Of a DNA stretch of 64,000 bases, positions 27,298 through 49,674 are shown piece after piece. A program made the translations under genes and the position numbers. Numbering within the stretch: the stretch's first letter is position 1; each line of letters begins with the position of its first letter. Origin of the DNA: Escherichia phage kvi. The notes under the pieces are model-generated. The model ran no database searches, was not told the origin of the DNA, and saw only the letters and a list, made by a program, of their open reading frames with translations. The DNA is taken from the sequence record MN850615.1, one strand, 5' to 3'.

Positions 27298-28077
27298 ATG
27301 GCAGTAGTTGGTGTTCCTGGTTGGATTGGAAGTTCAGCCGCAAATGAAACAGGGCAACGATGGATGAGTCAAGCGGCTGGTCAATTAAGATTGGGTGTTC
27401 CTTGCTGGATGAGTCAATTTGCAGGTCGCTCGCGAGAAATTATTCATACACTTGGTGCAGACCATAACTTCAATGGTCAGTGGTTCCGTGATAGATGCTT
27501 TGAAGCAGGTAGTACACCTATAGTGTTTAATATCACTGGAGATTTAGTATCATATTCTAAAGATGTTCCTTTATTCTTTATGTACGGAGATACACCGAAT
27601 GAATATGTTCAGTTGAATATACACGGCGTAACGATGTATGGACGTGGCGGTAATGGCGGTAGCAATGGTCCTGGATCAGCCGGGGGGCATTGTATTCAAA
27701 ATGATATTGGTGGGAGACTAAGAATTAATAATGGTGGAGCTATTGCAGGTGGCGGTGGCGGTGGCGGTGGCGGTAACAGGGGTCGACTAGTATTTGGTGG
27801 TGGCGGTGGTCGCCCATTCGGTGCTGGTGGGTCTTCCTCGAATATGGGTTCTGGTGCAACCGCTGGCACTATTTACGCTCCGGGTCAAGGATCTGTTGGT
27901 TCGGGGTCTCTTAGTGCATATACAGGCGGTGCGGGCGGTAACGTTGGTGCTGCTGGAGGAAGATGTAATACTCACGGTAACGGTACAGAATATAACGGCG
28001 GAGCTGCTGGTTATGCTGTTATAGGGTCTGCTCCAACGTGGCAAAATCGCGGAGCTATTTACGGACCGGCTGTTTAG
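27298..28077 (+). CDS. 38: tail fibre adhesin gp38 (T2-type, glycine-rich motifs)
   Basis: 259 aa; conserved N-terminus [23 protein letters not shown] and multiple poly-Gly motifs separating variable segments. Confidence 0.8.
27748..27774 (+). repeat. (GGTGGC)n hexanucleotide repeat inside gene 38
   Basis: ggt ggc x4 + ggt encoding a Gly9 run. Confidence 0.9.
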
Positions 28078-29073: not shown

Positions 29074-29109
29074 AAAGGGGAAGCCTTTCGGCCTCCCCTT
29101 CTTTTTATT
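29074..29109. terminator. bidirectional hairpin terminator between convergent t and minus-strand early genes
   Basis: GGGGAAGCC-TTTC-GGCCTCCCC flanked by T-run on plus strand and on minus strand. Confidence 0.55.
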
Positions 29110-29353
29110 GGCGCATAGACGCGCCTGAATCGCATTTTGACGCTGTATGATGAAAACAGGTAGCGTACCAGTCATCGGCTTGTTTGTCTTCGTCAGAAAA
29201 CGCGTAATTGCGTTGTATGCCGTTTTCTACTTTGACCAGTGCAATAGCTGTTTCTGGAAGATCAATCAATCGGACAAAATCGCCATCTTCCCATTCTACA
29301 CGAGCAATATCATAACCCATCTCAAAATAAACAATCGCTTGCTCTAATCTCAT
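29105..29353 (-). CDS. hypothetical protein
   Basis: 82-aa ORF. Confidence 0.4.
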   Translation of the reverse strand: MRLEQAIVYFEMGYDIARVEWEDGDFVRLIDLPETAIALVKVENGIQRNYAFSDEDKQADDWYATCFHHTASKCDSGASMRQ

Positions 29354-30771: not shown

Positions 30772-30963
30772 TCACTTATCGTTAAGAAGTTCTAAAACTT
30801 TCTGTCGTACTTTGTCAATATTAGTTGATTCAAAAACTGTACGGTATCCCCAGCTTTGACCGTATGATCGCGAGCAATCCCCATATCCCCATTGTTCAAT
30901 CTGATAGTATTCAAGGAATGGGTGCTGCCGAACTATGATACCATCGCGATTAAAAATTACCAT
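30772..30963 (-). CDS. hypothetical protein
   Basis: 63-aa ORF. Confidence 0.4.
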   Translation of the reverse strand: MVIFNRDGIIVRQHPFLEYYQIEQWGYGDCSRSYGQSWGYRTVFESTNIDKVRQKVLELLNDK

Positions 30964-30986
30964 AATATAATCCTCACGTCAACAAC

Positions 30987-31274
30987 TTATTTTCGGTTGT
31001 GGTCACGATATGTTTTAAAATATCCCTCGTACCACGGTAAAATATCTGGATTTTTACCACTATACAGACCTTTAACCATCATGTCAATAAGGCCACCTGG
31101 TGTTTGATAGTTTCCAGCTTTTATAAGCTCTCTGATTAAAATCTCTCTGTATATGTCTTTCGGATCTTCGTAATCAACTTGTATTGTGGTTGTGTTCTCA
31201 TTCAATTTGGTTTCTGGAGTATCTCGCATCGCATCCCACCAATCTTTTGTGATCTTCATGTTATTGAATTGCAT
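30987..31274 (-). CDS. hypothetical protein
   Basis: 95-aa ORF. Confidence 0.4.
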   Translation of the reverse strand: MQFNNMKITKDWWDAMRDTPETKLNENTTTIQVDYEDPKDIYREILIRELIKAGNYQTPGGLIDMMVKGLYSGKNPDILPWYEGYFKTYRDHNRK

Positions 31275-31285
31275 AATTTAACCTC

Positions 31286-32044
31286 TTACTTGCAAACGTA
31301 TTGATCTACATCAATTGCGCCACCGAATGTAGGATGACGTTTTTCGAATCGAATAGTTCCGTCGTTTGGTTCGAAAACGGAGTATTCATATAGATCTTTC
31401 TTGCCAACATTCTTATAAAACCCGCCTTTAGTCATAACGGTTTCTTGTACGTTTGCTTTGTGTACGTTGTATTCGTCAATGTATACAAAATCAACCATCT
31501 TCCCATTTTTAATGGTTACTTTAAGATCTCCTGGTTGATTTCCATATTTGGCATACAGTGGCGCTTCTTTAATTTTTGTGGAAATTCCATCTTTCATACT
31601 CCACTCATAACGAACGGTGCATTGATAGGTAAAAGTTTCGACCTTCGGTTCTTCTACCACTTTTGCTTCCTGTTTCGGTTGTTCTTCTTCAACCTTCGCA
31701 GAAGTCTCTGAATCGCTTTCTGACGCGGTTTCTTCTTTAGGTAATACATTCATCAAGTTTTGGATTTGAGCGTTGTATACAGCCTCCAGTGGCTGAATCT
31801 GCCCGATATTGATCATTGTATCACGAACAGTTTTATTCCAGTTTCGTTGCTCTTGTTTCAGAGACGGATCAATCTTAACAGCCTTAACATACACCTCATG
31901 AAGTTTAGAGTCCAGTGCGGAGATAGACTCATTAGCACAAATAAACTTCTCTGATTTGGTAGTAGCTTTAGCGCAATCAAAGGACGCAGCGTTAGCACCG
32001 AAAGCAGTAGAAGAAAGAACGATAGCAGCGATAATGTTTTTCAT
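31286..32044 (-). CDS. secreted DUF1311 (LprI-like, putative lysozyme-inhibitor family) protein
   Basis: start refined to ATG 32044 (M1 of track lies inside promoter); signal peptide MKNIIAAIVLSSTAFGANA; DUF1311 signature SFDCAKA..EKFIC...LDSKL..VY...QR.W.K..RD; C-terminal Cys-bracketed domain (YQC...YVCK). Confidence 0.6.
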   Translation of the reverse strand: MKNIIAAIVLSSTAFGANAASFDCAKATTKSEKFICANESISALDSKLHEVYVKAVKIDPSLKQEQRNWNKTVRDTMINIGQIQPLEAVYNAQIQNLMNVLPKEETASESDSETSAKVEEEQPKQEAKVVEEPKVETFTYQCTVRYEWSMKDGISTKIKEAPLYAKYGNQPGDLKVTIKNGKMVDFVYIDEYNVHKANVQETVMTKGGFYKNVGKKDLYEYSVFEPNDGTIRFEKRHPTFGGAIDVDQYVCK

Positions 32045-32078
32045 AATATATTCCTCAGTGTTTTGTCTTGATGGGAGT

Positions 32079-32107
32079 ATCTTACTACTCACTTAATCCG
32101 GTGTCAA
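32079..32107 (-). promoter_or_regulatory. sigma70-like early promoter
   Basis: TTGACA N17 TAAGAT. Confidence 0.5.
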
Positions 32108-32114
32108 CTACTTT

Positions 32115-32270
32115 TTAAATTTCTTCTACAGTAAAGTCTTCAATGTTGTTGTGCTCGGCGAACGTTGCCAGACCAGCATTCCATGCATCATCCTCAGAGA
32201 AGAATACACCGTAACGTTCATATCCTTTAGCGCCTTCAAATTTAACCATTAATTTGTGAGTATGTTTCAT
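32115..32270 (-). CDS. small hypothetical protein
   Basis: start refined to ATG 32270 downstream of promoter (SD GAAGGAG); 51 aa. Confidence 0.4.
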   Translation of the reverse strand: MKHTHKLMVKFEGAKGYERYGVFFSEDDAWNAGLATFAEHNNIEDFTVEEI

Positions 32271-32301
32271 TTTGATTCTCCTTCGTTGTCTTGATGAGTT
32301 T

Positions 32302-32330
32302 AGTATAGGGGATCGCCGATCCCCTGTCAA
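32302..32330 (-). promoter_or_regulatory. sigma70-like early promoter with hairpin spacer
   Basis: TTGACA N17 TATACT; spacer GGGGATC-GGC-GATCCCC. Confidence 0.5.
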
Positions 32331-32339
32331 CAACTATTT

Positions 32340-32552
32340 TTAATTTTTACCCGCTCGTGCATTAATACGCATTTTCTGAATAGCCATGATCTGGCTTACT
32401 GCTTCTTCTTTACGTTCTTGCGTGATAACGTGACCAGATTCCGCAAACTCTCCCGCAACTTCTTCTACGATCTCGCGAACTTGAGAACGTCCAAATATGC
32501 GGTTTCCTTCGTAGCTCATAAATTCTGTTACTACTTGCTCGATAGATTTCAT
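32340..32552 (-). CDS. small hypothetical protein
   Basis: start refined to ATG 32552 (SD AAAGGAG); 70 aa. Confidence 0.4.
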   Translation of the reverse strand: MKSIEQVVTEFMSYEGNRIFGRSQVREIVEEVAGEFAESGHVITQERKEEAVSQIMAIQKMRINARAGKN

Positions 32553-32581: not shown

Positions 32582-32610
32582 ATAATACTACTCCCATTTC
32601 TTTACGTCAA
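32582..32610 (-). promoter_or_regulatory. sigma70-like early promoter
   Basis: TTGACG N17 TATTAT. Confidence 0.45.
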
Positions 32611-33083: not shown

Positions 33084-33112
33084 ATTATGCAATGATGGAT
33101 TTGTGAAGTCAA
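33084..33112 (-). promoter_or_regulatory. sigma70-like early promoter
   Basis: TTGACT N17 CATAAT. Confidence 0.45.
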
Positions 33113-49150: not shown

Positions 49151-49354
49151 TTATAGCTCAAATTTCATGAAAGTTCCCACACTTTCATTTTCATTCTCTC
49201 CGTTCTCATCTAAGCCAAATTTGTAGACACTACCATCTGGCGATGTGTAAGAGAATACACGAAAACGGCCTACCGAATCAAGTTCTGTAAATTCATATTC
49301 TTTTCCGGCTTCAAAAAGTGCATATGTGCTTTTAAGACATTTCATCGTAATCAT
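49151..49354 (-). CDS. hypothetical protein
   Basis: 67-aa ORF. Confidence 0.4.
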   Translation of the reverse strand: MITMKCLKSTYALFEAGKEYEFTELDSVGRFRVFSYTSPDGSVYKFGLDENGENENESVGTFMKFEL

Positions 49355-49674
49355 TTAAGCGCCACCGACAACAGAATGAGAACTACACCAACATACATTG
49401 TGATCTCGGATAACTTTTCTGTTTTTGTTTTGTGTCCAGATAATCCGAAAACAACAACACCGACAATAGCGGACAGCAAGCCAACGATAAACATGATGAT
49501 ACTAAGCACCGTCTTTCTCCTTTTTGCGTTTTTCTTTACCCGCTACACTAGGTCCACGATTGGTAATAGATCCGCTCGTTTCCCCTGCTGCGATCTTCTC
49601 AGGATTGCCGCCAGCATCGCCAGCGGTCATATCTTCTTTGAGTTTATTTTCTTCAACAAACTGTTTAAATCCAA

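Follow-up and report, generated by a model that had tools for sequence, protein, structure and literature searches.

An exported DUF1311 protein with an interchangeable C-terminal domain in Krischvirus phages and Escherichia coli prophages, a candidate periplasmic exclusion factor

Described systems and their relation to the locus

The spackle protein (Sp) of phage T4 inhibits the tail lysozyme (gp5) of phages that superinfect the cell. It is made early, carries a signal peptide and disulfides, and is located in the periplasm, and its fold is helical. The protein analyzed here is encoded in a stretch of 64,000 nucleotides of Escherichia phage kvi (sequence record MN850615.1, hereafter the window). 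It resembles Sp in that both carry a signal peptide; an early promoter-like site suggests that the window protein, too, is made early, and a periplasmic location with disulfides is predicted for it. In contrast, the two sequences are unrelated, and any analogy between them would be functional only. This unrelatedness had been stated in the initial annotation and was confirmed by tblastn with the verified T4 Sp sequence against the Krischvirus genome, represented by positions 1-127.5 kb of RB49 plus the window, where no homologue was found and the only match was a spurious one inside gene 41 (E = 0.06). Similarly, the interval of genes 41-61, where spackle (gene 61.3) is located in T4, encoded no exported protein. 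A 52-amino-acid ORF between genes 61 and 41 (49351-49509, minus strand) contained two hydrophobic segments and may specify a small membrane protein. Both spackle and a DUF1311 protein are present in Klebsiella phage Marfa; hence the two are not simply alternatives to each other.

With respect to architecture, the window protein was compared with LprI (Rv1541c) of Mycobacterium tuberculosis, a reported lysozyme inhibitor that is composed of a PF07007 (DUF1311/LprI) domain and an MliC domain (PMC7933661). An extracytoplasmic location is common to the two proteins (by prediction for the window protein), and the structural model of the latter suggests the same order of an export signal, a DUF1311/LprI domain, and a small C-terminal beta-barrel. 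Unlike LprI, which is a glycosylated lipoprotein, the window protein lacks a lipobox and would be cleaved by signal peptidase I. The barrel of LprI is a true MliC domain (PF09864), whereas that of the window protein has no detectable sequence relation to MliC; further features that LprI does not share are the long acidic linker and the exchange of the barrel as a cassette.

The PF07007 domain also occurs in ScwA of Salmonella, a periplasmic protein stabilized by two disulfides, which affects the levels of MltD, Slt, and AmiC, lyses cells when overproduced, and confers no lysozyme resistance; it is the only enterobacterial LprI-domain protein tested for such resistance (PMC7933661). ScwA and the window protein have the PF07007 domain and the periplasmic location (predicted for the latter) in common. 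However, the LprI domain of ScwA is C-terminal (aa 185-271) and no barrel is present, whereas the DUF1311 domain of the window protein is N-terminal and accompanied by a barrel. Because ScwA gave no lysozyme resistance, the name "lysozyme inhibitor" is a weak one for DUF1311, and the label may travel with the LprI domain that is not the inhibitory one. The database label "lysozyme inhibitor LprI family" would thus be attached to the wrong domain of LprI, and no function should be deduced from it. Additionally, LprI-domain proteins with signal peptides adjoin lysozyme-like or transglycosylase effectors of type VI secretion systems (T6SS) as putative immunity genes (PMC9796082, PMC8867033).

The DUF1311/LprI domain annotation of the family is already public and is not new. 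RB49 ORF260c, presumably the RB49p262 gene under an older numbering, was listed with DUF1311 at E = 0.2 in a 2006 paper (PMC1524935), and the RB49 protein Q7Y3G7 is named [quoted passage not shown] in UniProt. A literature search found no paper linking LprI-family proteins to phages, and none of the papers examined appears to describe the fold of the barrel, its exchange as cassettes, or the capture by a prophage reported below.

Gene structure, export signal, and the constant module

The region 30900-32500 of the window shared 98.5% identity with Escherichia phage RB49 and 91-99% identity with about 58 other Krischvirus genomes, and by nucleotide sequence the 64-kb window is a Krischvirus (RB49-like). 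The locus lies in a block of small leftward early genes that extends from holin t (RB49p254) to gene 52 (RB49p269), and the RB49 gene order bears out the location between these two genes that had been assigned from the window alone. The longest ORF (31286-32092, minus strand) comprises 268 amino acids when read from a GTG. This GTG (32092-32090) is situated within the spacer of an early sigma-70-type promoter-like site (TTGACA-17-TAAGAT; 32079-32107, minus strand), and the true start is therefore the ATG at 32044. The coding sequence from this ATG (31286-32044, minus strand, with the stop codon at 31286-31288) encodes a precursor of 252 amino acids, which is a homologue of RB49p262 and a member of PHROG 14799, a family annotated as of unknown function. 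A Shine-Dalgarno sequence, GAGGAA (32051-32056, minus strand), is located 6 nt before the ATG, and the same start is used by RB49p262 (252 aa in the RB49 annotation) and by the E. coli homologues. The promoter, the Shine-Dalgarno sequence, and these starts all agree with the earlier proposal that translation begins at 32044 and that the upstream start falls inside a promoter spacer. The downstream gene (30987-31274, minus strand) encodes a homologue of RB49p261 of 95 amino acids.

Small leftward ORFs of the neighborhood each had a strong early promoter of their own (32302-32330, 31059-31087, 32582-32610, and 33084-33112, minus strand). The promoter at 32330-32302 contained a perfect GC-rich stem-loop, ggggatcggcgatcccc, in its spacer, equivalent to the PeSL-type motif described in RB49 and Phi1 (PMC2839356). 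The PeSL paper on mobile ORF modules of RB49-type phages (Arbiol et al., 2010) does not mention ORF262. In those modules, the recombination sites are early-promoter/stem-loop cassettes that bound an ORF, whereas the exchange points observed here were in the linker inside the gene and just past the stop codon, and not in promoters. The gene also has its own early promoter, and the stem-loop is found in the spacer of the neighboring promoter at 32330-32302. Adjoining holin t, an ORF of 82 amino acids (29105-29353, minus strand) matched the Tad2-like (Thoeris anti-defence 2) family (Pfam accession PF11195) with 27.1 bits against a cut-off of 25 (E = 6.4e-6); hence the block from t to gene 52 holds at least one anti-defence-type gene.

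The precursor begins with a signal peptide (aa 1-19, MKNIIAAIVLSSTAFGANA; 31988-32044, minus strand), in which cleavage by signal peptidase I is predicted after ANA. It is laid out as MKN / IIAAIVLSSTAFG / ANA, with 13 hydrophobic residues of a mean Kyte-Doolittle hydropathy of 2.08, and the mature protein would start with ASFDC. The junction, A-x-A followed by ASFDC, was conserved among distant phage homologues. Both the hydropathy and the conserved junction support the signal peptide and the cleavage after ANA that were originally proposed, and neither a lipobox nor a membrane anchor was found in the window protein sequence.

The signal peptide is followed by a constant module (aa 20-103; 31736-31987, minus strand), which forms a four-helix DUF1311/LprI domain (PF07007) and contains C24 and C36. 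The PF07007 profile matched aa 24-76 with 25.8 bits against a Pfam cut-off of 22 (E = 1.4e-5), spanning profile positions 1-71 of 106, and the homologues also carry a precomputed PF07007 assignment. The DUF1311 signature noticed in the initial annotation is thus above the Pfam gathering threshold. An AlphaFold2 model built from a 16-sequence alignment placed four helices over aa 30-98 with a pLDDT of about 62-79. The protein contains exactly four Cys, of which C24 and C36 in the DUF1311 part were invariant in two family alignments (A1 and A4), and C142 and C251 flank the C-terminal domain. A search of the N-domain profile against the PDB gave a sole match, a weak one to the tandem-DUF1311 protein 6AR7, and the whole window protein had no match among PDB sequences. 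A further protein, P0019, showed a weak PADLOC match to the C-terminus of PDC-S13 in its DUF1311 region (aa 54-111, E = 0.0044), and the defence candidate PDC-S13 may include a DUF1311-like segment. The constant module is connected to the C-terminal domain by a linker (aa 104-133; 31646-31735, minus strand) that is acidic, rich in E, K, P, and Q, and disordered, with a pLDDT below 50.

Across the 16 aligned homologues, near-invariance extended over the first 103-125 residues. Among close relatives, the N-domain had a dS of 0.06-0.26 and a dN of 0.004-0.03 (Nei-Gojobori), and in comparison with a more distant phage it retained 84-89% amino-acid identity despite a dS of 1.3-1.9. Judged by these substitution rates, the N-terminal half is under strong purifying selection. 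A decaying gene without function was ruled out by the dN/dS of the N-domain (about 0.05-0.15 in most comparisons) and by the presence of the gene across the genus.

Such strong purifying selection on the constant domain fits a conserved host partner. Like ScwA, a periplasmic, disulfide-stabilized LprI-domain controller of MltD, Slt, and AmiC levels (PMC7933661), the DUF1311 domain might bind or stabilize lytic transglycosylases or other autolysins (MltD, Slt), by which the sacculus would be kept intact or the timing of lysis tuned, in infection or in the lysogen, with the barrel adapting to variants among host strains. The early expression predicted from the promoter-like site is consistent with a modulation of host wall enzymes of this kind. 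However, the architecture of ScwA, with its LprI domain at aa 185-271 and no barrel, differs from that of the window protein; the conserved autolysins of E. coli would leave several anciently diverged cassette classes unexplained; and the location at a prophage end, combined with an origin in a virulent phage, is more characteristic of an exclusion gene. A modulator of host wall enzymes was hence considered unlikely.

The modeled C-terminal barrel and its exchange among phages

The variable module (aa 134-252; 31289-31645, minus strand) was modeled as an eight-stranded beta-barrel whose first strand contains C142 and whose last strand contains C251. Modeled alone from 12 family sequences, the C-domain reached a pLDDT of 90.9 and a pTM of 0.82 with eight strands, and the independent BFVD model of RB49 Q7Y3G7 agreed with it (TM 0.92). 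The fold neighbors of the barrel included PliC/MliC, PhiA, and the Neisseria ACP, with low rmsd and near-full target coverage, all of which are proteinaceous inhibitors of lysozymes or other peptidoglycan hydrolases. Cap15 and outer-membrane barrels scored as high as or higher than these inhibitors against the barrel model, and TbpB, fHbp, and NHBA were also among the structural matches of the full model or the barrel; as modeled, the barrel fold is generic and resembles many unrelated barrels too. A Foldseek search of the full model against the PDB returned only weak matches to lipocalin-like (calycin) barrels, with a best E of 4.7e-3.

The C-domain had been likened to LprI/MliC-type inhibitors on the basis of its bracketing Cys. 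The bracket and the resemblance in fold held up, in that the model is an antiparallel barrel of eight strands flanked by Cys at both ends, as is found in MliC/PliC, and membership by sequence did not. A phmmer search of the barrel against 1.84 billion representatives recovered the family only, plus two repetitive false positives. Similarly, a Pfam scan of five C-domain classes at E up to 10 gave no match, MliC included, a PDB profile search with the barrel returned no MliC/PliC and nothing relevant, and an hhalign comparison of the barrel with an MliC/PliC alignment gave a probability of 0.3%. The motifs SxSGAxY and YxxxTKG, which were invariant in the MliC/PliC alignment (A3), were both absent from the window protein; a lone "TKG" (VMTKGGFY) was present and was not conserved across the other cassette classes. 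In the MliC of Pseudomonas aeruginosa (3F6Z) and the Brucella PliC (4MIR), these motifs form the loops that insert into lysozyme, in contrast to the window protein, where such loops are missing. The Cys bracket reads YKC...ACK in the P. aeruginosa protein compared with YQC...VCK in the window protein. Membership in MliC (PF09864) was therefore rejected on the strength of the Pfam, PDB-profile, and hhalign searches and of the absence of the lysozyme-inserting motifs, and the C-domain, as modeled, looks like inhibitors of the PliC/MliC class without demonstrable membership. The Neisseria ACP is likewise described as an eight-stranded barrel, in which a disulfide holds the first strand to the last, and it inhibits lysozyme without the MliC motifs (PMC5507604). 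Unlike the window protein, ACP and PhiA are stand-alone barrels with no DUF1311 module, and their likeness to it is structural only.

The C-terminal residues, about 115 in number, fell into several classes, and only C142, G153, and C251 were common to all of the 16 homologues. At the DNA level, the Krischvirus genomes Phi1 and UPWr_E1 were 94-97% identical to the window up to 31643, had no detectable identity over the C-domain (a lost stretch of about 31642-31290), and returned to about 92% identity directly past the stop codon. The length of the linker differed among homologues, and the left breakpoints of the cassettes fell within it. The gene was present in essentially every Krischvirus record, with class a found in 44 records and the other classes in about 14. 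Between classes, the dS of the C-domains was saturated and the dN ranged from 0.35 to 1.9 (Nei-Gojobori). The contrast with the N-domain argues that the classes are old alleles recombined onto a recently shared backbone, and not the product of recent hypermutation. This combination of a constant half with exchangeable cassettes is the most prominent property of the locus, and neither it nor the prophage copies had been noticed in the initial annotation.

Classes a, b, and c were alignable pairwise at 27-41% identity. Homology of class d to classes a-c was not demonstrable past the first strand (hhalign 3%), so the barrel model is not to be extended to class d, whose C-domain may have another fold. 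In the more distant Klebsiella phage Marfa, Aeromonas phage AS-sw, and Salmonella phage SSU5, the same signal peptide and DUF1311 module were found with unrelated C-domains that contain a Cys pair.

Co-variation of the barrel with proteins of the same phages was not observed. The tail lysozyme gp5 was 95.7-100% identical across Krischvirus records, including phages of classes b and c, so that co-variation with the tail lysozyme of the genus itself is ruled out. The same holds for the gp38 adhesin, because class a occurs with different gp38 alleles: within Krischvirus, the allele of the window is common only to FL20, and class a is common to RB49 and most isolates. The gp38 allele itself (27298-28077, plus strand) was 99.4% identical to that of FL20 and had about 90% DNA identity to many phages with Tequatrovirus-sized genomes; this pattern suggests mosaicism of the adhesin across genera.

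Ancient alleles on a conserved backbone are typical of specificity determinants, and small barrels are general protein-binding scaffolds, as illustrated by TbpB, fHbp, and NHBA among the matches. Periplasmic exclusion might accordingly proceed by a route other than wall hydrolases, in which the barrel binds the periplasmic face of a receptor, a Tol/Ton component, an injected protein, or the DNA-translocation path, and the cassette class defines which phages are excluded. The location of the E. coli copies at a prophage end, as for known exclusion proteins such as Cor, is in line with this possibility. Cor and Llp are lipoproteins, however, whereas the window protein has no lipobox or membrane anchor; the cassette class did not co-vary with gp38, since the window and RB49 share class a and not gp38; and the link of DUF1311 to wall-enzyme contexts would be left unexplained. 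Exclusion through targets other than hydrolases was thus regarded as decidedly unlikely.

As for the wall-cleaving enzymes of the genus itself, Krischvirus gp5 carries a Phage_lysozyme domain, the only muramidase domain among the two phage proteins scanned. The Krischvirus endolysin RB49p102 (L019 4820-5209) matched Peptidase_M15_4 with 46.8 bits and is not a lysozyme of the T4 e type. Because the endolysin belongs to Peptidase_M15_4, a periplasmic inhibitor of muramidases would not hinder the phage's own lysis.

Prophage copies and the proposed role of the protein

The ends of prophages typically hold accessory ("moron") genes, often including those for exclusion proteins such as Cor. A homologue of the window gene, annotated as "lysozyme inhibitor LprI family protein", was carried by 26 of 5426 complete E. 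coli genomes. In every examined case, it was the last gene of a prophage in or beside hicB that encodes a gpA-type terminase and a Rha regulator. The 5' half of the E. coli copies had 94-96% nucleotide identity to the window over a stretch that starts 6 nt before the ATG and extends to the linker, and the matches stopped at three different points, corresponding to three cassette classes. These prophage classes (b1, c2, and d), or close relatives of them, were also found in lytic Krischvirus contexts, and the 120 nt upstream of the prophage gene were identical across all three.

Downstream of both the b1 and the c2 copies, 25 codons of the next Krischvirus gene were retained as a truncated remnant, the same in both and with a common right junction, and the class d copy had no remnant. 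The remnant (MKFNSMKITKDWWDAM...) of the gene at 30987-31274 was located at L004 9780-9857 (E. coli H2 chromosome) and was also seen in L005 and L015. The first 69 bp or so of the downstream gene make up the right-hand homology arm that was kept beside the b1 and c2 prophage copies, and the stretch past the stop codon and the first part of the remnant followed the corresponding lytic alleles. Since a remnant of a Krischvirus downstream gene adjoins the prophage copy, the direction of transfer was from the virulent phage to the prophage. The sequences suggest that the gene was captured from a Krischvirus and that its cassette was later replaced by homologous recombination, for which the constant 5' half and the remnant served as the flanking regions. 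The prophage copy has promoter-like and terminator-like sites of its own. In the carrier strains, hicB was annotated as C-terminally truncated (L004 10019-10330; L005 10016-10324), and the antitoxin of the HicA toxin may thereby be impaired.

The neighbors of the prophage copy had no recognizable function and no PADLOC match. This context bears on a possible immunity to bacterial weapons, in which the infected cell or the lysogen would be shielded from muramidase or amidase effectors of T6SS or from bacteriocins. LprI-domain and ACP-like proteins with signal peptides are known as orphan immunity genes in T6SS islands (PMC9796082, PMC8867033, PMC12135965), and polymorphic immunity domains are usual in such systems. 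Nevertheless, no effector gene adjoins the phage or the prophage copy, the window protein matched none of the PADLOC defence-system and toxin-immunity profiles, and the gain for a virulent phage with a cycle of roughly half an hour is not evident. A role confined to bacterial weapons appeared very unlikely.

The explanation favored here, held tentatively, is that the protein is a periplasmic exclusion or immunity factor that neutralizes incoming wall-cleaving enzymes, with the barrel as an exchangeable specificity module. An early-made, Sec-exported, soluble periplasmic protein would carry two disulfide-stabilized modules on a flexible acidic tether and would bind and neutralize peptidoglycan-cleaving enzymes that reach the periplasm from outside. 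The likeliest target would be the tail-tip lysozyme of superinfecting T-even-type phages, and muramidase toxins of competing bacteria would be a second possible target; the role would be superinfection exclusion or immunity, as for spackle in T4. One module may meet a conserved partner, with the barrel providing the exchangeable specificity and being reassorted through homologous crossovers in the linker and immediately after the stop codon. The E. coli prophage would have captured the gene from Krischvirus and would keep swapping cassettes with such phages.

The gene structure, the export signal, the domain architecture, the model fold, the cassette polymorphism, the purifying selection on the gene, and its flow between virulent phage and prophage were shown by the analysis; the target, and any inhibitory activity, we infer from several features. 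The neutralization of hydrolases is favored by the signal peptide, the four Cys, the PF07007 domain, the linker, and the barrel model with inhibitors among its fold neighbors, as well as by the module order of LprI and the LprI-domain proteins adjacent to T6SS. The cassette polymorphism, its sharp DNA boundaries, the near-universal presence in Krischvirus, and the copies at prophage ends argue in the same direction, as do the absence of spackle, the gp5 lysozyme, the peptidase endolysin, and the neighboring Tad2-like gene. In contrast, the lack of a sequence link or motifs of MliC/PliC, the lack of lysozyme resistance from ScwA, the near-invariant gp5, the presence of both spackle and a DUF1311 protein in Marfa, and a class d that is not demonstrably homologous count against it.

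A broader and unlikely extension of this hydrolase-neutralizing role is that the locus forms a polymorphic exclusion-specificity system across phage lifestyles, in which a prophage domesticated the exclusion gene of a virulent phage and updates its allele by recombination. Each barrel class would then set which incoming phages or wall-degrading enzymes are neutralized, the prophage would use the gene to protect its lysogen, and the constant N-domain coding region and the 69-bp remnant of the neighboring gene would serve as homology arms. If this were true, allele replacement in the chromosome would imply that cells survive such Krischvirus infections.

The gene is a concrete and easily testable candidate for superinfection exclusion or wall protection in T4-type phages outside the T4 genus that have no spackle. 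It is kept in every sequenced member of the genus, is predicted to be early and exported, and is built like the one known two-domain bacterial lysozyme inhibitor, and the cassette polymorphism supplies natural variants in specificity. A constant DUF1311 half joined to a swapped barrel half suggests that the protein acts in conflicts between phages or over the cell wall. Additionally, the finding of near-identical copies in E. coli prophages provides a clear and datable case of gene flow from virulent to temperate phages, which bears on how lysogens gain resistance to therapeutic Krischvirus phages.
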